Source: an uncultured marine group III euryarchaeote
Lineage (GTDB): Archaea; Thermoplasmatota; Poseidoniia; MGIII; CG-Epi1
Length of the DNA stretch: 64,000 nt
Assembly: GCA_902533295.1 (NCBI GenBank)
Contig: CACALG010000001.1
Coordinates: 19,048-83,047, forward strand
Direction of reading: 5' to 3'
The notes below the pieces were generated by a model that did not search any database, was not told the origin of the DNA, and saw nothing but the letters and a program-made list of their open reading frames with translations. Made by a program: the position numbers and the translations under genes. Positions 9,192 to 60,807 of this stretch are shown here, one piece after another. How positions within the stretch are numbered: the stretch's first letter is position 1; the number at the start of each line of letters is the position of its first letter.

Positions 9192-9240
9192 ATTTTTATT
9201 CGAAATCAATTTAGCGCTAGGCAGCCAACCCTAAATCTTA

Positions 9241-10707
<1,467 letters not shown>

Positions 10708-10989
10708 TTTTTTCCTTTCGAATGCACACTATGAGTTTATAAATTTACTAGAATTGTCGGATTGACTGCACTAGTTTCGCTTAGATTTCGAATGTCAGAT
10801 GATAGCCCAAACTAGGGTTGTTATCATCTCCATAACATTGTCTGCAATAACGGAATAGGTCCATCATAAAATCAGGAATTCGCCGAAGTCATTGCAACCG
10901 CTTACACGGTACCTGGTGACAGTTTTACCTGTTCAGGAGCTTCATCACTTAAAATGGTCTATTTAAGAAAAACGCCATATTTATCATAG

Positions 10990-16197: not shown

Positions 16198-16248
16198 AAT
16201 CCTAATAAGAAGCTAGTACTTTAATATAGTTTCACTAATGAGAATTAG

Positions 16249-16986
16249 ATGACTGAACAATACCACATGAATTCCCATGAAGGCACATATACTAGGGAAT
16301 TTGAGGCTAAAGTAGAGGCTACATTCCCAGGCATCATCGAACTAGATAAGACTGCATTCTATCCATTGGGAGGGGGCCAACCCTCAGATATTGGAACAAT
16401 AACTTGGAATGAAGGAGATGCAAATGTTACTGATGTGAGGAAAAAAAATCGAATTAGGCACATTGTAGAAGGAGATTTACCAGAAGTTGGAGATTCCATA
16501 AAAGGTAATCTTGACTGGTCACGAAGATATTCACATATGAGAATGCATACTTCTCAACATTTAGTTTCTGCTGTAGTGAATGAAATATATGGTTCAGATA
16601 CCGTAGGAAATCAGATAGGAAATGAGAAGTCTAGAATAGATTTTAAGCCTTTAAAAATAAACCAAACTGAGCTTAATGAAGTAGAGGACAAAGTCAATGA
16701 TTACATATCTAAAGACTTGAAAGTTACTATATCTGAGGAATTACGGTCCAATTTAGAAAATAATCCAGATATCCGTTCAAGTATGTCTAGTGGTCTTTGG
16801 AAAATGTTACCGAAAAGTGTTACAGAATTAAGAGTAATAACCATAGGTGATATCGATGTTTGTCCATGCGCAGGCACTCATGTAAAAAGCTTAAAGGAAA
16901 TAGGTAATGTTTCTTTTATTAAAAGAGATAATAAGGGTTCTGAAAAATTAAGATTAACATATAATCTAGGCGATATCGACTCTTGA
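16249..16986 (+). CDS. alaX: alanyl-tRNA editing protein AlaX (AlaRS editing-domain homolog)
   Basis: Zn-binding HxxxH (HTSQH) and CxxxH (CAGTH) editing-domain motifs; 245 aa. Confidence 0.65.
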   Translation: MTEQYHMNSHEGTYTREFEAKVEATFPGIIELDKTAFYPLGGGQPSDIGTITWNEGDANVTDVRKKNRIRHIVEGDLPEVGDSIKGNLDWSRRYSHMRMHTSQHLVSAVVNEIYGSDTVGNQIGNEKSRIDFKPLKINQTELNEVEDKVNDYISKDLKVTISEELRSNLENNPDIRSSMSSGLWKMLPKSVTELRVITIGDIDVCPCAGTHVKSLKEIGNVSFIKRDNKGSEKLRLTYNLGDIDS

Positions 16987-19900
16987 ATTTGTAAGGCCCT
17001 CTCTGTCCTTTTGTTCATACATCATTTTAATTTCTACAGAAGTTGCAGCATTACTTTTTTGTTGCATTTTTAGTTTAAATTGTACTTCGTTATATGAAGA
17101 TATATCACCCACAATAAACGAGTTATCTGAGAATGAATAATATACATCTGGATCTATACCTACTAATCCTAAGATGCTACTATTGAATTCTGGACTTATT
17201 TTACAACTACTAATAGTTTCAGATGAATAATTACTGAGATTTACGTTCAAAGTTATATTTGTACCGAGTTTTTCGTATGATGATGTAATAACAATTTCTT
17301 TTTCAGTGAAGTAATTGTCAACCATTTCTCTTGTAGATGCAATTGTTTCATCAATTATTGGGTTCAGATAAATTTTTACCTGCTTTACACTCTCGGCATC
17401 TCCATTCCAATTTGCTAGGGTTGGATTAATTGTTTCTATAGCTCTAACGGCATTAATCAGCTTCCCTTTGAACATATTATCTATTTCTCCATAAATTACA
17501 GCAGCAAGATAGGAATGTTCTCCTCTCTGTAGAATGATTTTATTATTACCATAGTCTATGGAACCCAGATCTCCTTCAGTTTGAAATGAGTCTTGAACAA
17601 AATCATTGATTGCTGTGAGCATCCCGCTCATGATATCTGTATCAGTTTTAACTTCAACAGCACTAACATTTCTAAGAAGCCTTCCATCTTTGTAAATTAA
17701 ATATAATTCTTCAACTTTATACTTAGCAATAGGTTTTGATTCAATAATAGATACATTTTCATCTAATTCTTCTTTCCTAGATCGGTATAGTAAAACACCA
17801 CCAAACATTAAGAAAAGAAGACTTATACCTATAGTAGCAGGTAAAATTTCTTTCATTCCAAATTGATCAGTTTCTGTACCTGAGGAACTATATAATTTGA
17901 CTACTTCTTCCATACTTACTGTTTCATTATTAGAATTGCTAATGTGACCGAATTCATCTTCTATTGTGATTCTATAAAAATAATCTCTGTCTGGACTTGG
18001 ATTCTTATGAATCCATTCATAATAACCTTGTTTACAGGAAGTTTCCATACCAACTCCTATTATTTCTTGTGTGAACCATCCACTATCTGAAGCAGGTAAT
18101 TCATCAGCTACCATTTGTACTTTACAAATAGCGGCATCTTCAGGAATAACAAAACCTAAAACCAATTCTGTAGCATTAGTATGCGATATTGCAACATTTG
18201 TAGCTTTCTGAGGGTCCTCTGTAAATACTTCAAAAGTTAAATGAACTCCTGAATAATCAATTTTTATGTTGTTATTACCTGTAATATCCTCAGTTGGTAC
18301 AAAACCTCCATTTGAAGTTCCACCAAATTGAATAGTCTTATTGATTATATCTAAATAATATTCATCTACTAACAATTTATTTTTGTTCATTCCTCTAACT
18401 AATGCTTTTTCATATATTCCATCTAAATCATTATCTACACTAACATTAAACCAATGGATATCATTAATTGCTGGAATATATTTCAAATTGAAACTTTGAT
18501 CATATTGCCCATTGGAACTGAAATATTCAGTAGTATCTAGTGGATTCTCAAGATTGCCTGCAAGATCACGACTTTCAGCATACAGGAAATATCGTGTATT
18601 ATCTTGCAAGTCCTGTAATTTAATTTTATCATCAGAGATATCATGAGGTAATAAATACCAAGTTAATAGATCATTACCTTTCTCTATAGTCTGTATTGCA
18701 ATATATATCTTATAATCTAGATTTAGATTATCTGTATCTATGAAGATTTCTAGATAATCATATCCCCATTTTTGAGGTACATTTGAGAAAGAAATGGTAT
18801 CTACTTTCGATGCATAATTCATTATTATATCATATTCTTCTTTATCCTCACTATTTCCGGCATAATCACTAGCCAGAATTTTAAATGCATAATGACCTAA
18901 TTCATCAAATTCATAAATATAGTGCGTGTCTCCATAAATATTTATTGAATCCAGAGCTGTCCAAGTAACTGAATTAGGATCTAAATTAGCATTTGTAAAA
19001 TTAGAATAGGAAACCTCTAGAGTATTATACGCAATATCATCTGCACTATTCTTCCACGATAAATCTATTTGACTATTGCCTATGAAATAATAATCCTCTT
19101 CAAAATTCAAAAGTTCGGTGGAAGGTATGGATGTATCAATCTTAACTTGATACTCGTAATTATTCTTATTCTCTGTGTTTCCATAAATATCTCTAGCTAA
19201 TGATCTAAACCGATATTCCTTACCATCTTCGCCAGTAAACAATACAATTGATTCTGTAAACGTGCCATATTCTTCCCATTGGGCAAATTTATCATTTACT
19301 ATATACTCAATAATATATTCTTTGAAATCATTATCATCATTCAAAAGAGATATTTGTAACTCAATAGATTCTGAATTAATTAATCCAGTTCCGGGAATTA
19401 TCTCTGATTGTGGTGATGTTGTATCCAATAATGCTAAAAGTGTGTGATTATAGGATAAATTTTTGTATATTTCTACCATAATGTCATTATTATAATAAAT
19501 AATTCTTATGGGATTATAATTAATTTCATTTTGATCGGCAGCTTTGCTAATTACATTTATCATATAATAATCGGAAAAACCATAGTTATCAGTTTGTGAA
19601 TCAACCAGTTTACTTCCAAAAGAATTTTCGATATCAAAACCATGCTCTCTTGAACCAGTGCCCCGCTCATCAGCTATATTAATTTGCAAATTGTAGCGGA
19701 TCAAATAATCAGTATCACGACAATTAAAATCATTGTTTTGTAAAGTAGAATCACTGTCAATTAAGTCCAAACAAAAATCTCCTTCTGAGAATATATTATT
19801 ATCTATTGATATAGTACTATTAAATGAATAAATAGCTTTTTCAAAATCGTTAAAGACATTGTTTAAAATATTTATATCTGATCTATAAGAGCTTACTGAT

Positions 19901-22128
19901 TGTGTATTATTCGTTAATATATTATTTGAAATTCTTCCTTCACTATTATTTGCAGTTATAGCTATTTCCGAAAAATTAATAATATTGTCTTCTAAGTCAA
20001 AATCTGCAAGAACGACAGTTATAGATTCTCTAAAATTCGTTATTATATTATCACTAACTTCGACTTCACCTTCCTGCGAAAAAATACCTACTGCAGCAAC
20101 TTTTTGTAAATAAAGAACATCACATCTATCATGTGTGCATAATCCGGTTACATTATTATTAACTATTTTACTATATGTCCTGTTACTAAGAATACCATAA
20201 TCATTTACATGCAATATATTATCTTCAATAAGTATAGGAAACGTACTATCCTCAAATCCTCCTACTTCGATACCCACTGCCGAACTTAATGTATTATTTT
20301 TAATTATAGTTTTTGGAATATAATATGCATAAATTCCTGATAATTGTGATTCAGGACTCATGTTTGTTTGAACTGTATTATTTGCAATATATCCTTCTTC
20401 AACATCTCTGAACATTATGCCAGCACCATCGATAGAATGAACAAGATTATTTGTTACATGTATATTATCAATTGTAAATGCTGAACCAAACTGAGTATAT
20501 GCAGATATTCCATTATATTTTATATTTTTGAGTGTGTTATTAGCGACAATACCATTTGATATGTCGCCAAAACCATTATCATATATCCAAATTCCTATAG
20601 ACGCATTATCAATATAATTATCCACTATAGTAAAATTTTTGTAGAAATTCCAAACCGTTATTGCTCTTGCTGATGTATTAGTAATATAATTTGAAATTAT
20701 ATGATTATCAGTTCCTACATCATTATATACATTTTCAAAATCAAGCGCTATTGGAAAGTCATTATCATTGATGGTATTATTTATTATATAATTTCCAGAA
20801 GGTGATATACCTCCTTCAGGCCAACCCCAAAGTCCTATAGCTTGCCATCCTATTTCAAAATTATTATTTCTTATAGTATTATTGTTCTGAAATGAATTAA
20901 TAAAAATAGCAATTGTGTAATTTTCAAAGTAATTATTTTCGATTAAATGACCTCCACCATAATATTCATCTGTATCAAAATCCCAGAACCAGAAAATCAT
21001 ACAACTATGCCCCCAATAGGGTTGTTTAGACCCGCAATTTATGAATGTATTATTACTGTATTCATTTCTATTTCCTGCACGATCCATAAGATTGTGCCAA
21101 TATACGCCAGAAACATTGAATATGTTGCGGCTAATTATATTGTCATCTGTAGCTTGTAGAGACATATCATGTATTGTATTATTTAGAAATTGGTTATCAA
21201 TTATTGTATGATTACTGCCTTGAGTTATAGTAAGCGTACCTCTGCCTCCCTGTCCATTATCCTTGTAAATATAATCTCTAAAGATGTTACCACTAATTAG
21301 ATTATAATTCCCATAGGAAATAGTTACACCTAATGTACCGTTAATGAAAGTATTATTTTGTATTAAGGCGTTCTCTCCTGAGACAAACAAGTCATAGAAT
21401 ATGTAACTATTATAAATCGTGTTATTAATAAATCTAAAATTATCAGTATAAGCACTAATTATTCCAATCATATCAAATGTGGAATTAGTTATGTAAGATC
21501 CAGCTCCAGTAAATCTTAATGCCTTTACATACTCAAAATCAGAATTCTCAATAATTACCCTAGTATTAGGAATTCCTGAGCCTGGCTGATTATTTACTAA
21601 TCTGCCTACTTGAACAGTATAATCTAACCTCTCTGTGTAATTCCCTTTACCAATTATATTAGATTTAATAACGGAACGATCATTACTAGTTGTCGGATTC
21701 AAATCATAATCTGTAACAATTAGTACAGAATTCTCATTTAAATCAAGACAATTAGCAGTTATTTCACTATTCTTTTGAATAGAATCAAGTATTAATTCAG
21801 AATTAATTATGGTCAGTGTACTGTATAATGATATATTGTCACCATGTGAATCTTGTTCATGAAATACTGTAGAATTAATCCATCTGGTTTCTCCTCTAAT
21901 TTCAATGAAACCTTTTGATGATAGAGAAACGTTTTCAAGTTTCAAAGTCTTACCAAAATTAACGACAATATCTTTGACTGAGACGTCCTCATCCCAAACA
22001 TGCGTGTCTTGAGTGATAATCCAATCCTGACCCTCTTGGGGTGCATTTCCATTTGAACCTGCTGAAGCATTTCCAGTACTGATTACTATCGCAGTAATTG
22101 CGATTAAAAGAAATGCTGTTTTCTTCAT
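16966..22128 (-). CDS. giant secreted surface protein (1720 aa) with parallel beta-helix repeats, a C-terminal TM anchor and a cytoplasmic Roadblock/LC7-like domain
   Basis: Signal peptide; long run of N-rich beta-helix-like repeats (NNT..N..I); TM ILPATIGISLLFLMFGGVLLY near residue 1350; C-terminal ~130 aa homologous to ORF 1..477. Confidence 0.6.
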   Translation of the reverse strand: MKKTAFLLIAITAIVISTGNASAGSNGNAPQEGQDWIITQDTHVWDEDVSVKDIVVNFGKTLKLENVSLSSKGFIEIRGETRWINSTVFHEQDSHGDNISLYSTLTIINSELILDSIQKNSEITANCLDLNENSVLIVTDYDLNPTTSNDRSVIKSNIIGKGNYTERLDYTVQVGRLVNNQPGSGIPNTRVIIENSDFEYVKALRFTGAGSYITNSTFDMIGIISAYTDNFRFINNTIYNSYIFYDLFVSGENALIQNNTFINGTLGVTISYGNYNLISGNIFRDYIYKDNGQGGRGTLTITQGSNHTIIDNQFLNNTIHDMSLQATDDNIISRNIFNVSGVYWHNLMDRAGNRNEYSNNTFINCGSKQPYWGHSCMIFWFWDFDTDEYYGGGHLIENNYFENYTIAIFINSFQNNNTIRNNNFEIGWQAIGLWGWPEGGISPSGNYIINNTINDNDFPIALDFENVYNDVGTDNHIISNYITNTSARAITVWNFYKNFTIVDNYIDNASIGIWIYDNGFGDISNGIVANNTLKNIKYNGISAYTQFGSAFTIDNIHVTNNLVHSIDGAGIMFRDVEEGYIANNTVQTNMSPESQLSGIYAYYIPKTIIKNNTLSSAVGIEVGGFEDSTFPILIEDNILHVNDYGILSNRTYSKIVNNNVTGLCTHDRCDVLYLQKVAAVGIFSQEGEVEVSDNIITNFRESITVVLADFDLEDNIINFSEIAITANNSEGRISNNILTNNTQSVSSYRSDINILNNVFNDFEKAIYSFNSTISIDNNIFSEGDFCLDLIDSDSTLQNNDFNCRDTDYLIRYNLQINIADERGTGSREHGFDIENSFGSKLVDSQTDNYGFSDYYMINVISKAADQNEINYNPIRIIYYNNDIMVEIYKNLSYNHTLLALLDTTSPQSEIIPGTGLINSESIELQISLLNDDNDFKEYIIEYIVNDKFAQWEEYGTFTESIVLFTGEDGKEYRFRSLARDIYGNTENKNNYEYQVKIDTSIPSTELLNFEEDYYFIGNSQIDLSWKNSADDIAYNTLEVSYSNFTNANLDPNSVTWTALDSINIYGDTHYIYEFDELGHYAFKILASDYAGNSEDKEEYDIIMNYASKVDTISFSNVPQKWGYDYLEIFIDTDNLNLDYKIYIAIQTIEKGNDLLTWYLLPHDISDDKIKLQDLQDNTRYFLYAESRDLAGNLENPLDTTEYFSSNGQYDQSFNLKYIPAINDIHWFNVSVDNDLDGIYEKALVRGMNKNKLLVDEYYLDIINKTIQFGGTSNGGFVPTEDITGNNNIKIDYSGVHLTFEVFTEDPQKATNVAISHTNATELVLGFVIPEDAAICKVQMVADELPASDSGWFTQEIIGVGMETSCKQGYYEWIHKNPSPDRDYFYRITIEDEFGHISNSNNETVSMEEVVKLYSSSGTETDQFGMKEILPATIGISLLFLMFGGVLLYRSRKEELDENVSIIESKPIAKYKVEELYLIYKDGRLLRNVSAVEVKTDTDIMSGMLTAINDFVQDSFQTEGDLGSIDYGNNKIILQRGEHSYLAAVIYGEIDNMFKGKLINAVRAIETINPTLANWNGDAESVKQVKIYLNPIIDETIASTREMVDNYFTEKEIVITSSYEKLGTNITLNVNLSNYSSETISSCKISPEFNSSILGLVGIDPDVYYSFSDNSFIVGDISSYNEVQFKLKMQQKSNAATSVEIKMMYEQKDREGLTNSRVDIA

Positions 22129-48154: not shown

Positions 48155-48706
48155 ATGTCAAATAATTATACAGTTTACAGAGATCTAAAAGAACGTGGTT
48201 TAATAGTAAAAATTGATGATTTTGGCCTAAGAGTTTATGACCGAAAAACTGAAACTAAAGGACAAGCATCTGCAATTGTTTTGCCTAAAAATTTCGACGA
48301 AAAAATAGATTTTAGCAATATTTTTAATGAACTGGAAAAGGGACTTGAGAGAAGAGTCCAAATTGGAATAATAGATTCTGACAATGATGTAGTATATTAT
48401 GTGATTAAAGGCATCAAATGGGATGAAACTAAACTAAAAGAAGGTCAAAAAAGTACAATTACAGACAAGGAAGTTCAAGAACTACTCGAGAAAGGATACC
48501 AAATAAATTCTGGATTAAAATTTGGAACACATTACAGAGTCTACAACTATGAGTCAAATCATGCCCCTTGGCTAATACACGTCATAAAAGAAGGAATTAA
48601 TTGGTTAGATATTGCAAGAATGGTACGTGTAGGTCATGGTGTCAATAAGACAATAGTTTTAGCATACAAACAGAAATGGCTTAGTATTGAATGGATTAAA
48701 CCTTGA
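48155..48706 (+). CDS. endA: tRNA-splicing endonuclease EndA (catalytic repeat plus degenerate repeat); probably begins upstream near 47960 without a canonical start codon
   Basis: C-terminal catalytic domain GYQINSGLKFGTHYRVYNYESNHAPWLIHV; preceding degenerate repeat VYRDLKERGLIVKIDDFGLRVYD; an EndA N-terminal-domain-like segment (GILITDERL...EEALYC) continues in-frame upstream of the ATG. Confidence 0.65.
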   Translation: MSNNYTVYRDLKERGLIVKIDDFGLRVYDRKTETKGQASAIVLPKNFDEKIDFSNIFNELEKGLERRVQIGIIDSDNDVVYYVIKGIKWDETKLKEGQKSTITDKEVQELLEKGYQINSGLKFGTHYRVYNYESNHAPWLIHVIKEGINWLDIARMVRVGHGVNKTIVLAYKQKWLSIEWIKP

Positions 48707-49416
48707 TAGTTGGACTCTACACCAAAGATTTTGCTTTACTTAACAATATCACAAATAAGATAAAAGATCAAAAAATTAAACTTCGCCACCTAGATAATCT
48801 TTCAAATTTAGGAAAGGATTTGCAAATAATTATTTCTAAAAGAAGAATTAAGAATTGTAAAATACCTCAAATACAACCTGAAAATTTGGACGTTCTAGAA
48901 TTGAAATTAAGATGTAAACTATATACCTGTTCTGGTTTAGTAATAGGAATAGATCCTGGTGGCATGATTGGCCTATCTGCAATAGGTACTGGTAGAATAT
49001 TGTTCATGAATACTTATGATAATCCTAATGATTTAGCCATAATTGTTAAATCTATATATTTAGAAATAGGGCTAAAAGCGATTAAGATTGGATTAGGGTC
49101 TCCACCTGAGAGAACAAGAATATTAGACGTACTCAAAGAATATTCAAGTATCATTCAATTAGTCAATGAGCAAAATAGTGGAAGTGGGAGTCATACTGAA
49201 GCTGCAACAATAATTGCTTTGCGCCAAGGTAAATATAATTTAGATGAAAAATACAGACCTAAGGATGGAGAAATATCATGGATTCAGAAGGAATCAAGAA
49301 GATTATCAAAAGGATTAGTTACAATAGACAAAGAACTTGCTCATGAAATACTAATTGGGGAAAAGACTATGGATGAAGCCATAAAAATTTACACAAAAAA
49401 AATGAAACTTCGGTAA
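48703..49416 (+). CDS. putative RNase H-fold nuclease (RuvC/YqgF-like)
   Basis: GIDPGGMIGLSAIG resembles the first catalytic-Asp strand of RuvC/YqgF; C-terminal HTEAATIIAL resembles the RuvC terminal catalytic helix; low similarity. Confidence 0.3.
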   Translation: MIVGLYTKDFALLNNITNKIKDQKIKLRHLDNLSNLGKDLQIIISKRRIKNCKIPQIQPENLDVLELKLRCKLYTCSGLVIGIDPGGMIGLSAIGTGRILFMNTYDNPNDLAIIVKSIYLEIGLKAIKIGLGSPPERTRILDVLKEYSSIIQLVNEQNSGSGSHTEAATIIALRQGKYNLDEKYRPKDGEISWIQKESRRLSKGLVTIDKELAHEILIGEKTMDEAIKIYTKKMKLR

Positions 49417-49472
49417 ATTAGGCACTTGATTGAGAATACTTATATAGACAAATAATAACAAGGAGATACGAT

Positions 49473-50205
49473 ATGGCATTACTAGAAGTTAAAGAGCTAA
49501 AAAGAGGCTTTGGATCCAAGACCTTTGGCACTCGAATTGAGGTTCTTAAGGGCGTTAATTTAGAAATAAAAAAGGGTGAACTAGTTGCGTTAATGGGACC
49601 GTCTGGATGTGGAAAATCTACCTTATTGAATATAATTGGAGGATTGCTAAAAGGAGATTCCGGAAAAATAAGTATTACTTCTCAAGAAAATAATTATAAT
49701 TATGGAACTAAGAATCCTAATCGTGTTGTAGATGTAAGAAGAAATGGTGTAGGATGGATATTTCAAGATTTTCACTTAATCGAACATTTAACTGCTATAG
49801 ACAACGTTGCATTATCACTTGAAATTTCAGGATTAACGGAGAGAGAAGCTGAGGAAAAAGCTAGATTAGCACTTACTAAAGTTGGTCTCAGGGATAGGAT
49901 AGACTTTGGTGTAGAGCAACTTTCAGGAGGTCAACGTCAACGAGTTGCTGTTGCAAGAGCTATTGCTGGTTCTAGACCGCTACTATTAGCAGACGAGCCA
50001 ACGGGAAATCTAGATATTGAGAGCGGAAATGATGTCATAAAATTGTTTAAGATGCTTACAAAATCTGAAAAAACCAATCTCAGTACTAATGGTTACACAT
50101 GATCCTAATCTAGCCAGTCAAGCCGATCGTATGTTATTGTTAAAAGACGGACTTGTGGCTGCGAGTGATATAAAATCTGCATGGGGAATAGGAGGAAAGA
50201 AATGA
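49473..50205 (+). pseudogene. ABC transporter ATP-binding protein (LolD/MacB-type) interrupted by a +1 frameshift at an A6 run (50068..50073)
   Basis: Walker A GPSGCGKST, signature LSGGQRQRVA and Walker B LLLADEPT lie in frame 0. The H-loop segment LMVTHDPNLASQADRMLLLKDG continues in frame +1 after the A-run; deleting one A restores a ~245-aa protein ending TGA 50203-50205. Confidence 0.6.
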
Positions 50206-51734
50206 AGAAAAGAATAATAAAATGGAAAAATAAATTCCGAGATCTTCCTGATAATTTAAGAATAGCTGGCCTTAGTTCATGGCGTGACAAGGAAAGAGGA
50301 TTAGCTGTATTCGCAGGAGTTTTCCTCGCAAGTTTAGTAATTACTTTAGTATTAGTATACGGAGTTGGGCTTTCACAAGCTTTCTTAGAAGAATCATTAG
50401 AACAAACAGTTTTTGATTCAAAAATAGAATTTAAAAATGCTCCAGCTCAGGGTTCTACTGGATGGACAAACAACACTACTATTTTACAAAATATGTGTGA
50501 TGAAGTTACACTAAAGGAAGAATTTAGTGATTGCACAGTAATATTGGGTAAAAGTGGGATACATAGTGAGTTGAGCTTTTCTAATGATGCTGCATTTTAC
50601 GCATCTCCACTCTTTTTGAAGGAAATCGAATCTTCTGATAATGACAGAGACTGGGATCAAGAGGATTTATGGGATTATGAATACACGACAGGACCTCCTG
50701 TTGTAAACATAAGAGCTATTTCATTTTTGGGCCCTGAAGCTTTTGATGGTGAAATCTCAGAACGCTTATCTAAAAAAACATAATTTATGAAATGGGCGAA
50801 TGGAAAACTCATGAAGAGGTCCATGCTGAAAGAGGCATATACATTCCATTAGATATTGCATCTACTACTGGTGCGGAAGTAGGAGATAAAATAGAACATC
50901 TAACATTTACTTACACTTCTGAAAGAAGCCTTCCAGGAGGGATGTCTGAAGAAGATTGTGCTGGTGAGATAATTGAAGGTGAAGAATTCAGGCTTATGTA
51001 TTGCCAAATTCCCCTAACTCTTGATAATGTCACAATTCTAGGAATATATGAACCATGGCCACAAGGTAATCCAGTTCTTGCTGCTAATCCTATATACACA
51101 ACATGGACTATACTTGATGAAAAGCAGCAAACTACTCTGATTGATAATGACCATGTATACCTTGGTGTAACTGTAGATCGCACTCTATTACCAACATCAT
51201 CTATCTCAGCTGCAGAAGATTGGTTAGAAATTGTTGCAAATGATATGCAAAAAACAAACTTACGATGATGGAAATGTAAAGATATTCTATGTAGATATAA
51301 TAAGTAGCAGTATTTTGTGGCTTGAATTTTTCCTTGGATTCGTTCAAGTATTCGATTATATTTTAATGATACCTGTGGTTATTCTTTCCCTATACTTACT
51401 AATTTATGGACTAGAACTTTCATTAGAACAAAGAAGAAGAGAAATAAGTATTCATAGAGCCATTGGTGCAACAGCAGAAAAACTTAAGGGAATGGTTCTC
51501 TTTGAACTGTTTATAATCTCTACAGTTGCTTGGTTAGGTGGATATTTGCTTGCCCTTATTGCAGTTCCTTTTGTCCTATCTATTGTTGGTTTTATGGAAT
51601 TTGAGGCATTGGAAATCGATGTTAATCCAAGTCTGAGCTTTGGCGCTACATTCTTCACCATTCTTACCACCCTGGGATTAGCTTTAATTTTCGGTAATTC
51701 TCGCACGAAAAGCTTCCTAGAGATGGAAAATTGA
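50202..51734 (+). pseudogene. MacB/FtsX-type ABC transporter permease split across three frames by frameshifts at A7 (50772..50778) and A6 (51249..51254) runs
   Basis: The pieces 50202..50783 (TM1 + periplasmic domain), 50792..51268 (periplasmic domain) and 51231..51734 (FtsX TM2-4 with EISIHRAIGAT) are contiguous in sequence logic. A one-A change at each homopolymer joins them into a single ~500-aa permease. Confidence 0.5.
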
Positions 51735-51780
51735 TGAGGGGGTCAGAAAGACAAAGGAGACAGGTAAACCAAGAGTTTGG

Positions 51781-53778
51781 TTGCATTGGACTATGTTTGG
51801 CATAGGAGCCATAGGTGCAATAGATACTTGGCAAGAATTGAATACAACCGGTGAAGGAATAATAACCAACTGGTTTGTAGGTGGCTTAATTAATATTTTT
51901 GGACCTTTCTTATTATGGATAGGTGGGGCTTTGTTGCTTTCAAGATTAGGTGCAGCCGGACCTTCTATAATGCTTAAATTCTTCAGAAAAACCCCATTGC
52001 TTTCTGATGTAAAGAGAGGTCTTGAATCGACTGGAACAAGTGAATCTACAGGTAGACTATCAACAATTATGCTATTGACATTATCAATAGTAACTCTCGC
52101 AGCCGTACAAGGATATACAGGTTCTCTTGTCGATGAAAGAACAGCGGATTTAGATATTGGTAGCGACATCAAAGTTTATGCTGTTGAACCAATGACTTCA
52201 ATTGAAGTAGAACAAGCAATCACTAATATCAGCTCTAAAGACCTTACTGTAAATGCAGTAAATGTACCGATTATTCCCTTGATATCTGAGGATGGGACGG
52301 ACGTTAATGCATATGTACTAATGAATGAAAGTACCGAGATACTCAAATGGTTTCCTCAAGCCGTTCCTGGAAAAGATATTTCTGAAGCAATGATTGCATA
52401 CAAAGATGGAGGATTCACAGCAGGCGAAGATATAGCATTTACATTGGATTTATGGGGTTCTGGCCGTTACGGTGATTCAGAAGACATATTACTAGATAAA
52501 AGCAATAAGAACTCAGAAAATTTGAATTTAACATGGGAAGAAACTATTGTTACCTTTACAGGTGAGGAAAATGAAGAACTAGATCCAATGATGGCGATAG
52601 TGTTGTATACTGGGTTCATGGAAAAGAATTGGTCAAATATTGACCTATCTAACCAGGATATAAGCAGCCGGAATTTTACACAAACTGACTTTTCGAATAC
52701 AAATTTATCTGGTGCCAATTTAGCTAATTCAGATTTATCAGAATCGATATTCTTCAACGTTGATCTAAGGGGTGCTAATCTAACTGGTGCAAATCTAAAC
52801 AATACTGTATTTGTGATACAACCACAAAACATTGTCGGTGCAAACTTTACAGGTGCAAATCTGAGAGGGGCCTTTGAATATACTGGATTTGTTAATTTGT
52901 CAAACGAGGAAATAAGTGGTGCTATTTGCCCTGATGGAACTATACAAACTAATGATAATAATTGTTCCACTGGATTTAGTACAATACCTCCCCCCTTACT
53001 GGCACCTTTCTTTATTCCTGCAACAGTTGAATTTGAAGTGATTCCACATGAAACAACTATACGATACATTGGAGTTCATGAATTCATTCCTGGTGTTGCT
53101 ACAAATGACATGAATAATTATTTAGTAATAAATGAGCTAGCATATAGAGAATTACGAGGAAATCAATTCGTTGATAGTGAAACTTCAACTACTTGGATTG
53201 TAGATATAGATGGGCTCAATAATGATGAATTACAAGTATTGGCCCTGCTAATAGCTGCAGATTCTCGTTTTGAAAGTGCCGATGATTGGGAAACATCACA
53301 TGAAAATGTTGAGAGAAATGGAGGAATTATATTCGGAACACAGGGTCTTTTCACACTACAATATCTTGTTGCAAGTGTTGCTGCAATAGCCTCATCATTT
53401 GTTTTCTTATCATTAGTTTTAAATCAAAAGAAGAAAGAATTGGCTATTTTACAAGCAATAGGAGCTAGTCCAAATCAGATTATCAGACTCGTTTTATTCG
53501 AGATTCTATCTATAGTATTTGTTTCTATGATTTTAGGAGTTATACTCGGTATTGGTTTGGCTTTATCCTTTAACGGACTGTTTGATATCTTTGGATTCTT
53601 ATTCCAGTTGTTTTCTGGAACTGGAGAATCATCAGTAATTACAAGAGTACTACAGTGGCCTTGGTGGGTTATAATCAAGGTCACATTAGGTGTACTATCT
53701 GTGGTTGTCTTGGCTTTAATTATGACCACCAGAAGGGCATTACGTGCCGATTTAGCCGTTGTTTTAAAGGGAGAATAA
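51781..53778 (+). CDS. FtsX-family ABC transporter permease with a large extracytoplasmic domain containing pentapeptide repeats
   Basis: TM1 RLSTIMLLTLSIVTLAAV; extracytoplasmic A(N/D)LxG pentapeptide tract (FSNTNLSGANLANSDLSESIFFNVDLRGANLTGANLNNTVF...GANFTGANLRGAF); C-terminal FtsX domain ELAILQAIGASPNQII + 3 TM. TTG start; could be fused to the upstream permease via a further frameshift near 51725. Confidence 0.55.
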   Translation: MHWTMFGIGAIGAIDTWQELNTTGEGIITNWFVGGLINIFGPFLLWIGGALLLSRLGAAGPSIMLKFFRKTPLLSDVKRGLESTGTSESTGRLSTIMLLTLSIVTLAAVQGYTGSLVDERTADLDIGSDIKVYAVEPMTSIEVEQAITNISSKDLTVNAVNVPIIPLISEDGTDVNAYVLMNESTEILKWFPQAVPGKDISEAMIAYKDGGFTAGEDIAFTLDLWGSGRYGDSEDILLDKSNKNSENLNLTWEETIVTFTGEENEELDPMMAIVLYTGFMEKNWSNIDLSNQDISSRNFTQTDFSNTNLSGANLANSDLSESIFFNVDLRGANLTGANLNNTVFVIQPQNIVGANFTGANLRGAFEYTGFVNLSNEEISGAICPDGTIQTNDNNCSTGFSTIPPPLLAPFFIPATVEFEVIPHETTIRYIGVHEFIPGVATNDMNNYLVINELAYRELRGNQFVDSETSTTWIVDIDGLNNDELQVLALLIAADSRFESADDWETSHENVERNGGIIFGTQGLFTLQYLVASVAAIASSFVFLSLVLNQKKKELAILQAIGASPNQIIRLVLFEILSIVFVSMILGVILGIGLALSFNGLFDIFGFLFQLFSGTGESSVITRVLQWPWWVIIKVTLGVLSVVVLALIMTTRRALRADLAVVLKGE

Positions 53779-53780
53779 AT

Positions 53781-54872
53781 ATGAGTGAAGAACTATTTGA
53801 ACATACAACGGGACAAGGAAAAGAAAATGAAGAATCAAAGCAGCAAATGGAAGCTGCTCAATTCTCAGAGAATTTATATGACAACAAAATAGACAAAAAT
53901 GCTATCTTACAAGCTATAGCATTATATCATGTTTATCAATCTACTGCTGAAGATGGAAATGTTGTTGCTTTGAGAGGATTAAATGTAACTGTTAAGAAAG
54001 GAGAAGCTGTAGCCATTGTTGGTCCTTCTGGTTCTGGTAAATCAACCTTATTGAAATGTCTTGGAGTTTTAATGAAGCCCTCAGCAGGAGGGGTTATCCT
54101 AAACGGAACGCCAACTACACGTAAGACTGGACTTGAACTAGTAAAAATGAGACAAGAAACAGTTTCATTTATTTTCCAAGAAGGGAATCTATTGCCTGAT
54201 CTAAATGCCCTCGATAACGTAGCTCAACCACTACGCCACAGAGATGTAAGCCCATATGAAGCAAAAGAAAAAGCACGTGAATTATTAATTGAATTAGGCT
54301 TAGAAGAAAGAATATATGGATTTCCTGAAACACTTTCAGGTGGTGAACAGCAAAGGGTCGCAATTGCACGGGCGTTAGTAACAAATCCAAAACTGATTCT
54401 AGCCGATGAACCTACGGGGGCACTAGATCCTATAACCAGTAGAGAAGTACTAGAATTATTTGGAAAATTACACAAGGAAAGAGGTGTAGCATTCTTAATT
54501 GTAACACATAGTGCAGAAGTAGCAGCTTTTTGTGATCGTAGCTTAGAATTACGTGATGGCAGATTTGTCGCCGAACATGGAACAAACTTAGAAATAGAAG
54601 ATTTAGAAGAATCTCGTGAACTAATAATTGATGATTTAGGAACATTATCATTTCCTCCTGAAGTATTGATGAGAATGGGTGGTTCTGGACGATTTGAAGT
54701 TGAGGAAGCTGCTGATGGAAAAATTACCTTGGTTGCTGCTGAGAGAAAAGAATCTATGATTAAAGGAAAGCAAAAACTGGCTGAGAAATGTCCTGCTTGT
54801 GAGTACAAATACAAGGACAATAGCCAAATGTGTCCTGAATGTGGTTCAAGCCGACCAATGATTAAATCATAA
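53781..54872 (+). CDS. ABC transporter ATP-binding protein with a C-terminal extension ending in a zinc ribbon
   Basis: Walker A GPSGSGKST, signature LSGGEQQRVA, Walker B LILADEPTGALD, H-loop VTHS; ~120-aa tail with CPACEYKYKDNSQMCPECG. ATG at 53781 directly follows the upstream stop (the ORF-track start at 53655 overlaps and is unlikely). Confidence 0.75.
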   Translation: MSEELFEHTTGQGKENEESKQQMEAAQFSENLYDNKIDKNAILQAIALYHVYQSTAEDGNVVALRGLNVTVKKGEAVAIVGPSGSGKSTLLKCLGVLMKPSAGGVILNGTPTTRKTGLELVKMRQETVSFIFQEGNLLPDLNALDNVAQPLRHRDVSPYEAKEKARELLIELGLEERIYGFPETLSGGEQQRVAIARALVTNPKLILADEPTGALDPITSREVLELFGKLHKERGVAFLIVTHSAEVAAFCDRSLELRDGRFVAEHGTNLEIEDLEESRELIIDDLGTLSFPPEVLMRMGGSGRFEVEEAADGKITLVAAERKESMIKGKQKLAEKCPACEYKYKDNSQMCPECGSSRPMIKS

Positions 54873-56708: not shown

Positions 56709-57587
56709 ATGAGCTGTGTAGATGACTTATCCAAAATTGGCATGAACGATTTGAACTATACTTGTGCAACAGAAATAGCAAGTATGGGGCCTGTTGCAGC
56801 TTTACTTACTATACTCATTGGAATCCCTCTTGTAAGGCTGGTTTTGAGGTACCTAAAGAATATATTTGAGAAGTATGATTACATCGATGAAGGAATAGAA
56901 AATTTCCTTTTTAGAGCTACCAGCGTAGCTCTTTGGGCTGTTATTTTCTTGACAGCCGCAAATGAACTAGGAATAAATGTTACAGGAATTGTAGCAGCTC
57001 TTGGTATTGTTGGTTTAGCAATGGCTTTTGCAGCTCAAGATACTATAGAGAATATTATTGCAGGTATATTCCTAATGGTAGATAGACCATTCCGTGAAGG
57101 TGATCGAATATTATTACCGAAGAAAATTGGTAGTTTGTATTCAAGCTGGGGTGATGTAACTGAAGTTGGCCTTAGAACAACAAGAGTGCGCTCCACTGAT
57201 GGAGTTTTGCTTACAATACCAAACAAAAATTTGACAAAAGACACCATTGCTAATTTCAACCATAAAGATGACCGAAATCTCCGTGTAAGGATTAGATTAG
57301 GACTAGTGCCAACATGGGAAAATGTATCCAAAGGTGAAGAAATTGTAGAAAATATTGCTAAAAGTCATGAGGACATTTGCCAAGATAAACCAAAACCACC
57401 ACAGATAGTTTTGAGAGATTTTGGAGATCAAGAAGTAATCATGGAAATTAGATACTATGTCCCTAATGCACCTCTAATGAGAAGTACAAAATCATATTTT
57501 GTTAAAGAAATTCTAAAACAATTTGAAGAACAAGATGTTAGATTGGCATACCCAACTAGACTAATTATGAAGGAAGATATTGAATAA
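56709..57587 (+). CDS. mechanosensitive ion channel, MscS family
   Basis: TM3 Gly/Ala-rich helix (AALGIVGLAMAFAAQDTIENIIAGIFLM) followed by PFREGDRI motif and beta domain. Confidence 0.75.
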   Translation: MSCVDDLSKIGMNDLNYTCATEIASMGPVAALLTILIGIPLVRLVLRYLKNIFEKYDYIDEGIENFLFRATSVALWAVIFLTAANELGINVTGIVAALGIVGLAMAFAAQDTIENIIAGIFLMVDRPFREGDRILLPKKIGSLYSSWGDVTEVGLRTTRVRSTDGVLLTIPNKNLTKDTIANFNHKDDRNLRVRIRLGLVPTWENVSKGEEIVENIAKSHEDICQDKPKPPQIVLRDFGDQEVIMEIRYYVPNAPLMRSTKSYFVKEILKQFEEQDVRLAYPTRLIMKEDIE

Positions 57588-58631
57588 TTAAGGATTCAAA
57601 CCCTTTTCAAGTTCTTCTATTTCCTTACGCAGAGAATCTAAATCCTTATTGTCTTGCGTAGTTGTGGTAGGTGCTTCCGTTGTAGCTAACTGATGCTTAT
57701 ATGGATTGAACCAATTGACAAAATGATTTGCTGCCACTTTCAAAACAGTACTAACTTTGGCCATACCGCCATTGGTTTTAGATATATTGATATCACATGA
57801 CAGCACACCACAGTCAGCATTTGCATTATTAATTTCTGAATATGGGATAGTAACACCTGCACCACCACCGGCAAAAATTAGCCTATCCTGTAAAGCAGCC
57901 ATTGCATTTACAGGAATACCATCAATCTGTGTGTTAAGTTGTGCCTGGACAAGTGCATATACTGTATCCCCGGATTGCATCATACCTATAAGTGGAAAAA
58001 TCTGGGAATCATTATTAGTTACATAAAAACCATCTGGCAACTGTTTGAGCATTTCTCTAAAAAAGGCAAAATCGGCATTGTAAGGTACTCCTGAGATACC
58101 CTGAACCTGATTAGAAACTGGAGGTGTAACTGGAGGTGTAACTGGAGGTGCAGCTGGAGGTGTAGCTGGAGGTGTGCTAATATTAGCATCTTGATTTGTA
58201 GCTAACTGATGCTTATATGGATTGAACCAATTGACAAAATGATTTGCTGCCACTTTCAAAACAGTACTAACTTTGGCCATACCGCCATTAGTTTTAGATA
58301 TATTGATATCACAGGACATTACGCCACAGTCAGCATGTGCATTATTAATTTCTGAATAAGGGATAGTAACACCTGCACCACCACCGGCAAAAATTAGCCT
58401 GTCTTGTAAAGCAGCCATTGTATTTACAGGAATACCATCAATCTGTGTGTTAAGTTGTGCTGGCACTAGTGCATACACTGTGTCTCCAGGCTGCATCATA
58501 CTCATAAGTGGAAAAATCTGAGAATCATTAGTCGTTACATGAAAACCATCTGGCAACTGATTTAGCATTTGTCTAAAAAGAGCCAAATCAGCATTGTAAG
58601 GCACTCCTATTATATTACTCATAAATATCAA
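57588..58631 (-). CDS. hypothetical protein with two near-identical tandem ~150-aa domains of unknown function joined by a Pro/Thr linker; C-terminal coiled coil
   Basis: Domain copies (YNAD.A.FR.ML.QLPDGF.VT.NDSQIFPL...IFAGGGAGVTIPYSEINNA.ADCGV.SCDINISKTNGGMAKVSTVLKVAANHFVNWFNPYKHQLAT) separated by TPPATPPAAPPVTPPVTPPV; ends LRKEIEELEKGLNP. Confidence 0.5.
   Translation of the reverse strand: MIFMSNIIGVPYNADLALFRQMLNQLPDGFHVTTNDSQIFPLMSMMQPGDTVYALVPAQLNTQIDGIPVNTMAALQDRLIFAGGGAGVTIPYSEINNAHADCGVMSCDINISKTNGGMAKVSTVLKVAANHFVNWFNPYKHQLATNQDANISTPPATPPAAPPVTPPVTPPVSNQVQGISGVPYNADFAFFREMLKQLPDGFYVTNNDSQIFPLIGMMQSGDTVYALVQAQLNTQIDGIPVNAMAALQDRLIFAGGGAGVTIPYSEINNANADCGVLSCDINISKTNGGMAKVSTVLKVAANHFVNWFNPYKHQLATTEAPTTTTQDNKDLDSLRKEIEELEKGLNP
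57682..58610. repeat. ~420-bp direct tandem duplication (period ~516 bp, ~90% identical; copies at ~57682..58100 and ~58198..58610) inside CDS 57588..58631
   Basis: Both copies begin tgtagctaactgatgcttatatggattgaaccaattgacaaaatgatttgctgccactttcaaaacagtactaactttggccataccgccatt and stay collinear for ~420 nt. Confidence 0.75.
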
Positions 58632-58657
58632 AAGGTTAGCATATTATTTATTATTTA

Positions 58658-59113
58658 TTATTCATCTAGACTGGCTTCAAGTTCTTCGATTTCTTTCTGC
58701 AAACGCAACTTTTCGGCTGCTTTCACTTCTTCATCTTTTTTCATTAAGTATTCCTTTCTCTTTTGCAAAAGTTCTTCTCGTTCAGCTTGTTCTACTTTTG
58801 CCCTTTCCCGTTCTTGAGCTTCAGCGATAATTCTTGTTTCCTGAAACTGCCTTGCCATTTCCGCATGTGCCTCTAAATTCTCCTTATCCTGTATATTTTT
58901 AGCCCAAGCTACAAAAACCAACATTATTATGAAACTGATACAACAAATAACACTATCTTCCCCAAATTCTTCATCTTGCTTTTCACACTCTGGTGTCCAA
59001 TCAACGTCACAAGAATCATCAGGAGACTCTGAACCAAAAAAGAAAACACATGCGATGAGAAAAAATGTTATAGCAAGAAAATTCAACAGATTCTTCAAAA
59101 TTCCAGAAGCCAA
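58658..59113 (-). CDS. small membrane protein with Cys-rich extracytoplasmic loop and C-terminal coiled coil
   Basis: Two TM helices flanking a CDVDWTPECEK...VICC segment; Glu/Lys/Arg-rich coiled coil ending LQKEIEELEASLDE. Confidence 0.4.
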   Translation of the reverse strand: MASGILKNLLNFLAITFFLIACVFFFGSESPDDSCDVDWTPECEKQDEEFGEDSVICCISFIIMLVFVAWAKNIQDKENLEAHAEMARQFQETRIIAEAQERERAKVEQAEREELLQKRKEYLMKKDEEVKAAEKLRLQKEIEELEASLDE

Positions 59114-59161
59114 ATAATCACCCTATAACAACAAGAAAAACACTATTTAAAAAAATTTACC

Positions 59162-60100
59162 TTATTTAGAAAGCTTTTCCATCCTTTCTTCATATATCTT
59201 ATCATTAATCAATCCTTCAGCATGCAATTCTTTAAGTTGATCAATCTTAACTTGCAAAGAACCACTTGAAGCTTCTTTCTCAATATTTGATTTACTTACA
59301 ACACTATCTTTGATAATTGTGTCTCTGTCATCTACATAAGTTGTTGTTGTATCTCTATCATCTATATAATTTCCTTGAACAATTGTTGTAGGTGGTCCTG
59401 CACTCACTTGCATCTTACTCTTATTAACACGACGTATATCCTCTACCCTATCTAATTCTCTATACAAATCAAGTGCATGTTCATAATCTAATTGTCTCTC
59501 ATACTTCCTAGCTAATTCTAACTTCTTCGCTACCTTTCTATCTGCCTCCTCTCGCCTCTTTTTATCCTTTAATTCATTCTTAAGCTCAGCCTTCTTAGCT
59601 CTGAGTTTTTCCAATTCGGGATCAACAGATTTACTTGATGGTTCAACTTTTTCTCTAGGGTTGTTAAACTTTTGACTCGTATTTGGGATTTCATTTTTAA
59701 ATTCCTGATTAGTAGTGTCGTGAACATTTACAGGACACAGACCAAACAGAACTTGGGCATCTGTTTGCGATACAAAAGTAGAGGCTGCCATAAACTGATA
59801 TTTTTCTTGAGCATATCCATTGTCATAACTGAAATTAAAGAATTGCTTACCATTTCCAGTAATCCATTTTGTTCGCATTTTGATTAATTCAAAGGCCATT
59901 TGATTAGTGGCATCTCCACAGACCAAAAGTCTCGTATTAGTCAAAAAAATATTTGCCTTACTGTATATTGTATTTTTACCCAAATATGAATCTGTTGTAG
60001 TAATATTGTAAAATTTTTGAATTGTTACATTGGCTCCATTTCCTCCAGAAGACCAAACAATATGCTCATTAGCCTCAAGCAAAGGATTCGTATTAGGCAT
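59162..60100 (-). CDS. bacterial-PH-like (DUF304-type) domain protein with central coiled coil and C-terminal SHOCT domain
   Basis: N-terminal IVWSSGG...IFLTNTRLLV resembles bPH domains; charged coiled coil (LEKLRAKKAELKNELKDKKRREEADRK); C-terminal LKELHAEGLINDKIYEERMEKL matches the SHOCT pattern. Confidence 0.45.
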   Translation of the reverse strand: MPNTNPLLEANEHIVWSSGGNGANVTIQKFYNITTTDSYLGKNTIYSKANIFLTNTRLLVCGDATNQMAFELIKMRTKWITGNGKQFFNFSYDNGYAQEKYQFMAASTFVSQTDAQVLFGLCPVNVHDTTNQEFKNEIPNTSQKFNNPREKVEPSSKSVDPELEKLRAKKAELKNELKDKKRREEADRKVAKKLELARKYERQLDYEHALDLYRELDRVEDIRRVNKSKMQVSAGPPTTIVQGNYIDDRDTTTTYVDDRDTIIKDSVVSKSNIEKEASSGSLQVKIDQLKELHAEGLINDKIYEERMEKLSK

Positions 60101-60190
60101 ATCTAATTACTATAAGTGGAGTTTTAGAAACTTTCTCCAAAAGATTCATTCTATACACATAAATATAATAAATCCCTCACAGATAGAGCT

Positions 60191-60807
60191 ATGAGGAAAA
60201 AAATGTCATTTGAAGTACCTGATTTACCGTACGACTACAGCGCTCTTGAACCATACATAGATGAAGAAACTATGCGAATACATCATGACAAACATCATGC
60301 TGCATATGTTAACATGTTGAATGGTGCAGTTGAAGCTGCAGGAATAAAGGGAAAATCTGTAAAAGAATTAATCACAGACTTGGATTCTGTACCTGAAGCT
60401 CAAAGAGGAGCTGTTAGAAACCATGGTGGTGGGCACTTTAATCACTCACTATTTTGGGAAGTCATGGGTCCAGTTAATGGTGAAATGAGTTCCGATCTGA
60501 ACACAGCACTTTTGGAAGCATTTGGATCATTAGATGATTTTAAAGCTAAATTTCAGAACGCAGGAATGACACGCTTTGGCTCTGGATGGGCCTGGTTATG
60601 TTCAAATAATGGAAAATTGGAAATATGTTCTACTGCAAATCAAGATAATCCAATTATGGGTAACAAATACGGTGGAACTGATGGAGAGATACCAATCCTA
60701 GGAATTGATGTTTGGGAACATGCATATTATCTGAATTATCAAAATTTGAGGGCAGATTACATTTCAGCTTTCTTCAATGTTATTAATTGGGCTGAAGTCT
60801 CAAGGCG

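Follow-up and report, generated by a model that had tools for sequence, protein, structure and literature searches.

At the locus examined here, which lies within the window (the whole 64-kb stretch of DNA that was analysed), two genes of an ABC transporter operon cannot be read in a single frame. The question is whether these genes are really broken, whether they are decoded in an unusual manner, or whether they are intact in the organism and misrepresented in the record.

Four frame breaks in a three-gene operon

Three-frame translation of positions 49473-53790 and alignment to orthologous loci showed four frame breaks within 1.66 kb, all of which are surplus A residues in coding-strand A-runs (Table 1). 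A reading made earlier from the letters alone (hereafter the sequence-only reading) had followed ATPase 1 in frame through Walker A, the signature and Walker B to a shift at the A6 run of site 1; the translation agrees, with the H-loop segment PISVLMVTHDPNLASQ... read in frame 1 past that run. It had likewise split the permease at the runs of sites 2 and 3, which both the translation and the ortholog alignment confirm. The further shift that it had thought possible near 51725 is real and lies in the A4 run of site 4: in relatives the permease is one ORF of 1190 to 1212 aa spanning both halves, and the fourth break is thereby proven. The three, possibly four, poly-A frameshifts of the sequence-only reading are thus all present, and their number is four rather than three. 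Along the permease, the frame passes from 0 to 2 at site 2, returns to 0 at site 3, and changes to 1 at site 4, where it remains to the end of the gene. No nonsense codon, deletion, or non-homopolymer lesion was found in the broken genes. All four breaks fall within the first 40% of the 5.4-kb operon, and the distal 3.1 kb has none.

Table 1. Segments of the operon and sites of the frame breaks (window coordinates).
Feature	Position	Strand	Basis
ABC ATPase 1, 5' part (frame 0: Walker A, Q-loop, signature, Walker B, to the A6 run)	49473..50073	+	Three-frame translation, ORF list
ABC ATPase 1, 3' part (frame 1: H-loop segment PISVLMVTHDPNLASQADRMLLLKDG...; stop 50203-50205)	50074..50205	+	In the shifted frame, amino acids agree with those of all orthologs
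Permease segment 1 (frame 0: N-terminus, TM1 aa 34-52, start of extracytoplasmic domain 1)	50202..50778	+	Translation, hydropathy
Permease segment 2 (frame 2: middle of extracytoplasmic domain 1; own TM segment or signal absent)	50779..51254	+	Translation, hydropathy
Permease segment 3 (frame 0: TM2-4, first FtsX domain)	51255..51730	+	Translation, Pfam, hydropathy
Permease segment 4 (frame 1: second half; TM segments, extracytoplasmic domain 2 with pentapeptide repeats, C-terminal FtsX)	51731..53778	+	Pfam FtsX 1.6e-23, Pentapeptide 5e-12
ABC ATPase 2 (intact, 363 aa, LolD/MacB-like; C-terminal zinc-ribbon-like tail)	53781..54872	+	Third operon gene, conserved in relatives
Site 1: A6, +1 A versus all relatives (A5, AGAAG, GAAAT and others)	50068..50073	+	Ortholog alignment
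Site 2: A7, +2 A versus relatives (AAAAA or GAAAA; 46 loci)	50772..50778	+	Ortholog alignment
Site 3: A6, +1 A versus relatives (AAAAA, AAAAG, AGAAG; 41 loci)	51249..51254	+	Ortholog alignment
Site 4: A4, +1 A versus GGAAATT in 18/18 aligned loci; inter-half linker	51727..51730	+	Ortholog alignment

Removal of the extra bases yields a 243-aa ATPase and a 1190-aa permease without internal stops, and the permease start at 50202 overlaps the restored ATPase 1 stop as ATGA. It had been proposed that a single-A change at each site would restore one continuous protein. The frame does recover in this way, but at site 2 the orthologs show that the true restoration is the removal of two A's; adding one A there also restores the frame and gives a permease of 1191 aa. 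We rejected the view that the pieces are separate functional polypeptides: segment 2 covers only the middle of an extracytoplasmic domain and has neither a TM segment nor a signal, and the truncated ATPase loses its H-loop. Mutual compensation of sites 2 (+2) and 3 (+1) was also rejected, as a frame-0 stop codon follows immediately after site 2.

Domain organization of the corrected proteins

The corrected ATPase 1 is a standard ABC_tran protein (Pfam, 6.5e-35), and the top NCBIfam matches of the ATPases are DevA, MacB, FtsE, and LolD (about 1e-54 to 1e-62), every score being under its curated cut-off. The corrected permease matches FtsX (PF02687, 1.6e-23) in two stretches, carries a pentapeptide-repeat block, and has homologues annotated as FtsX-like permease. 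Against the ADOP duplicated permease family (TIGR03434), it scored 60 bits over a partial match, compared with a curated cut-off of 622 bits. Because all NCBIfam scores are far under the curated cut-offs, the operon proteins belong to no named equivalog. Hydropathy predicts TM1 at aa 34-52, a loop of ~310 aa at aa 53-365, and a TM bundle at aa 366-496; the second half is predicted to repeat this pattern, more TM segments and another large loop preceding a three-TM bundle at the C-terminus. Since the domain and hydropathy pattern recurs in both halves, we describe one duplicated FtsX-type permease and not two, and what had been called a permease pair, or a following permease, is instead the second half of that single protein. 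Sites 2 and 3 interrupt its first extracytoplasmic domain, and site 4 interrupts the linker joining the two halves.

The permease shares with MacB/LolCDE/FtsEX-type (type VII) ABC transporters two FtsX domains and, as predicted from hydropathy, a TM1 followed by a large extracytoplasmic domain and a three-TM bundle. It differs from them in being a fused, duplicated protein of ~1190 aa with a pentapeptide-repeat insert and in having two different flanking ATPase genes. The locus is an ordinary operon, strongly conserved in Marine Group III, that is predicted to encode a MacB/LolD-like ATPase, a duplicated FtsX-type permease of ~1190 aa, and a second ATPase.

Several features of these proteins vary among lineages or are unusual in themselves. 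ATPase 2 (53781-54872), which is conserved in all relatives, is extended at the N-terminus and ends in a zinc-ribbon-like tail (weak DZR match). The pentapeptide-repeat block, encoded at 52600-52900 (permease aa ~805-890), lies inside the second extracytoplasmic domain, and many Poseidoniia homologues of the permease, 1040 to 1068 aa long, have the FtsX domain only, without this block. In ATPase 1, a hypervariable insert of 0 to 32 aa is located between Walker A and the Q-loop (aa ~57-90, 49640-49740) across Marine Group III lineages; the window and the related locus L008 have the short form, and the related loci L001 and L004 carry ~32 additional residues.

Orthologous loci in Marine Group III

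The window comes from a Marine Group III (Poseidoniia) archaeon. The short-read ortholog set consisted of 51 loci, 10 from a genome scan (73 to 96% amino-acid identity) and 41 from a metagenome scan. The ATPase and the permease are each in a single frame in 51/51 of these loci, over whatever part each contig holds, and none of them (0/51) carries any of the four breaks. At each site, 18 to 46 relatives have runs of A5 or shorter, often interrupted by G. The suggestion that this might be a true pseudogene with equally broken orthologs is therefore refuted, all orthologs being intact, and an inactivation, if real, would have to be private to this lineage and very recent.

A close relative provided an independent view of site 1. 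A protein search identified P0296, an intact 243-aa ATPase that is ~100% identical to the corrected window ATPase, and that is encoded on L058, a contig assembled with MEGAHIT from the Tara Oceans run ERR594337. Over window positions 48601-50362, L058 shows 98.8% identity and 20 mismatches. The sole gap in these 1761 nt is site 1, an A5 run in L058 as against A6 in the window; the Tara scaffold L059 likewise reads A5. The genome scan, the metagenome scan, and three protein searches gave no contig of at least 98% identity over sites 2-4, L058 being the only one found at that identity and covering site 1 only, and the Tara scaffolds L057 and L059 do not reach sites 2-4. Exact look-ups of five window proteins found no identical contig, and the five transporter fragments looked up (P0127, P0128, and P0220-P0222) were listed as NCBI only. 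Elsewhere in the window, two Tara scaffolds other than L058 match at 99.8% identity, over 3.1 kb and 0.8 kb, with zero indels, which indicates that the population of the window is present in Illumina data and that the record is otherwise accurate. The scaffolds of 98.8 to 99.8% identity come from run ERR594337 and samples SAMEA2622733 and SAMEA2622737.

Similarity to the relatives is mosaic along the operon: positions 50900-51500 are 96 to 97% identical to L009 and L014, 52100-53300 are closest to L001, and 49400-50000 are closest to L008. This pattern suggests that recombination may have occurred among Marine Group III lineages.

The comparison bears directly on phase variation, in which the A-runs would be contingency tracts that toggle the transporter on and off. 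The lesions do lie in mononucleotide runs, as such tracts would require, but the runs are short (4 to 7 nt), and the ancestral A3-A5 forms are fixed in length or interrupted by G in 18 to 46 relatives per site. Moreover, one slippage event cannot switch back four simultaneous OFF lesions, and longer A/T runs elsewhere in the operon and the window are stable. The ancestral runs being short (A5, A5, A5, and A3) and showing no length variation among relatives, the proposal that the tracts are phase-variable found no support, and we consider this mechanism extremely improbable.

Selection on the corrected genes

Pairwise dN/dS values of the corrected genes against L001 were 0.074 for the permease and 0.115 for the ATPase, compared with 0.015 to 0.139 for neighbouring genes. 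With L001, L008, and L009 as references, the codon changes private to the window comprised 46 synonymous and 6 non-synonymous changes in the permease and 26 and 3 in the ATPase (72:9 in total). The corresponding ratios in intact sister lineages were 55:13, 71:23, and 112:27, so the window branch is the more constrained. Changes located 3' of every break remain overwhelmingly synonymous in the ortholog frame. Relaxed selection, as expected of a decaying pseudogene, was thus not found on the window lineage in these private changes, and a detectable neutral period is therefore absent; we estimate that any such period amounted to at most about 0.004 substitutions per site.

Selection in the ortholog frame is also what would be seen if recoding, whether through ribosomes shifting +1/-1 at AAA-A Lys contexts or through slippage of RNA polymerase on the A-runs, still yielded a full-length transporter; the signal is equally explained, however, by breaks that are unreal or very young. 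An AAA Lys codon directly precedes the extra A at three sites. In Sulfolobus solfataricus, fucA1 is subject to programmed -1 frameshifting at A-AAA-AAT, and site 2 can be likened to that site, as a stop codon comes after its A7 run and a -1 shift there would recover the frame. Unlike the fucA1 site, site 2 is unconserved, is out of the canonical phase (the A7 run does not fit X XXY YYZ), and is one of four breaks. None of the shifts is conserved in any relative, site 4 (GAA AAT TGA) has no slippery codon, and serial sites needing +1, -1 (or +2), +1, and +1 would multiply their inefficiencies. Neither an in-phase slippery heptamer nor an A/T run of about 9 or more was present at the sites (A6, A7, A6, and A4). 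Transcriptional insertions grow exponentially with run length up to 9 to 11 nt, and deletions rarely occur at homopolymers (PMC5574713), whereas rescue by transcriptional slippage would need deletions at three of the sites. The Lys-tRNA slippery context invoked in the sequence-only reading is accordingly unsupported, since the four breaks need different shifts and relatives share none of them, and we regard recoding as very unlikely. Junction-spanning peptides such as ...TKSEKPISVLMVTHD..., if detected, would support it.

Genuine inactivation is far more difficult to dismiss. In this scenario, a first frameshift very recently killed the transporter, and further slippage insertions in A-runs were then neutral, leaving a pseudogene private to the lineage. 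The grouping of lesions in one functional unit is what lost selection predicts, with purging elsewhere explaining why the other parts of the window are clean; indels in AT-rich genomes arise chiefly at homopolymers; and the record is otherwise accurate, showing no indels against independent Illumina assemblies of its population. Homopolymers account for 88.7% of the indels in Blochmannia, and the indel/substitution ratio in neutral sequence is 0.19 to 0.29 (PMC3622351). Real inactivation would be compatible, at the edge, with such ratios of neutral AT-rich sequence (PMC3622351), but 1 to 4 indels are expected within 0.004 substitutions per site only at the very upper limit. The 72 synonymous to 9 non-synonymous private changes, a ratio under that of the intact sisters, also speak against it, as do the restriction to A insertions without deletions, T-run changes, or stop codons, the absence of lesions from the last 3.1 kb of the operon, and the fact that the closest strain (98.8%) is unbroken at site 1. 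The young A/T-run pseudogenes of Buchnera and Blochmannia (PMC3622351) are a close parallel, sharing AT-richness (35% GC), poly-A frameshifts, and several lesions per functional unit; the window differs from them in that dN/dS is not relaxed and the lesions are insertions only. On this balance, we consider inactivation in the cell a serious contender, albeit somewhat improbable. Tamas and colleagues are said to have described, in 2008, endosymbiont tracts of about 9 to 10 A that are rescued by transcriptional slippage; the runs in the window are much shorter.

Clustering of the breaks and the rest of the window

The sequence-only reading had held the clustering of the breaks to be non-random, and a simulation bore this out: four events targeted to A/T runs would fall within 1.66 kb of the 64-kb window with a chance of 7e-5 to 1e-3. 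As a control, it had pointed to two 5-kb ORFs that are intact despite many A-runs. These ORFs contain only two runs of at least 6 each, and the whole window, with 105 A/T runs of at least 6 (27 of at least 7), serves better. The other ~60 kb include about 100 A/T runs of at least 6 yet showed no further frameshift, and these four are the only non-3n coding indels in the 12.4 kb that align to L001 (91% nucleotide identity). Within the tract, three of the seven ancestral A5 runs are altered, compared with 0 of about 240 A/T 5-runs elsewhere.

We considered and rejected the presence of other split genes in the window, the suspicious pairs of adjacent ORFs being distinct, complete Pfam families. 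A divergent or low-quality patch or a foreign segment was also rejected, as few parts of the region are as well conserved as this tract, which contains no N's and no repeats. No excess of substitutions was found in the broken tract.

If error-prone synthesis across about 1.7 kb, either a slippage-prone repair patch or a conversion from a slipped RNA copy, had introduced every additional A in a single event, this would explain at once why the changes cluster tightly, share strand and type, and show no elapsed neutral time; transcriptional errors at A/T runs are indeed insertions (PMC5574713). Four slippages in one transcript or patch would nevertheless be very improbable at A3-A5 runs, and the tract carries no accompanying substitutions. 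In addition, we know of no process that yields homopolymer insertions exclusively. A single event of this kind therefore appears highly unlikely to us, less so than phase variation but more so than recoding. If true, it would be a strand-specific 'mutation shower' of homopolymer insertions alone in an archaeon.

Local consensus error as the favoured explanation

The lesions are private, uniform in type, clustered, and without relaxed selection. Of the three options put forward in the sequence-only reading, sequencing or assembly error and genuine pseudogenization survive, and phase-variable or slippery tracts are not supported, the runs being short and the breaks shared by no relative. We favour, with about even confidence, the explanation that the four extra-A calls arose locally, as errors of consensus or assembly, and that the real genes of the organism are intact. 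It is favoured because of the uniform type and strand, the clustering on a sub-operon scale, the lack of relaxed selection, and the unbroken A5 run at site 1 of the closest strain, from which we infer that the lesions originate in the measurement rather than in the cell. Each of the four events adds A to an A-run, always on the same strand, and they include an unusual +2 and a change from A3 to A4.

Such errors would sit in a ~1.7-kb stretch of the consensus of the record. They might have arisen in a patch backed by very few reads or a single noisy read, or else in an unpolished stretch or a region where contigs were merged. Homopolymer consensus errors of long-read, pyrosequencing, or semiconductor data and of unpolished or merged patches share with the window changes in mononucleotide-run length that are private to one record, and one lesion that is missing from an independent assembly of a 98.8%-identical strain. 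They differ in that the changes in the window are confined to 1.66 kb and are A insertions only. The clean remainder of the window and the indel-free matches to Tara scaffolds of its population speak against error, since the process would have to be strictly local, and so does the lack of a substitution excess that would mark the tract as low quality. If the record is a plain Illumina assembly, a possibility raised by the Tara scaffolds that nearly match it, errors in the form of homopolymer insertions would not be anticipated at A3-A5 runs.

Two nanopore contigs polished with pilon, L012 and L013, cover the orthologous locus and show what a generic long-read error looks like. They contain about 2 indels per kb in every gene, involving all four bases and both insertions and deletions. 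Against a 97.4%-identical short-read MAG, L012 has 28 small indels in 14 kb, in all four bases and often outside runs. We rejected generic long-read error as a global cause, as this pattern is pervasive and mixed, unlike that of the window; any artefact in the window must therefore be local.

The comparison also turned up irregularities in public records. In L012 (ENA lagoon_1 contig_13145_pilon, 717 kb) and L013 (agincourt1_1 contig_22959_pilon, 141 kb), nearly every gene is fragmented, and the gene fragments populate public protein collections. Positions 1-45 of the contig L055 are adapter-derived sequence at the contig end, and similar ends have been translated into the protein entries P0005, P0132, P0136, and P0139; such adapter-derived translations read MCSSDL..., MYKRQ..., ...DLSLIHI, and ...CLLYTSPSPRDS. 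A 1-nt deletion, at 3.7x coverage, is present in L055 as well.

Other features of the window

A 2.6-kb island at 57575-60202 contains three minus-strand ORFs (57588-58631, 58658-59113, and 59162-60100). It is missing from every related locus that spans the junction, where the alignments jump from about 57574 to about 60203. The ORFs of the island (57588-60100) gave no Pfam match and no meaningful PADLOC match. An archaeal 16S rRNA gene at 9240-10707 on the minus strand stands alone, with no adjacent 23S gene, and two giant ORFs adjoin it (region 9240-22128), one of 1735 aa (BNR, CARDB) and the other of 1720 aa (beta-helix, NosD, cohesin).

Implications for the Marine Group III transporter

Under either surviving explanation, the locus is no new kind of feature, and it provides no evidence for recoding or phase variation in archaea. 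For annotation, it should be read as one conserved three-gene Marine Group III operon and not as five gene fragments. If the lesions are real, the locus would be an unusually fresh snapshot of the loss of a transporter in an uncultured marine archaeon, an event of a known kind.
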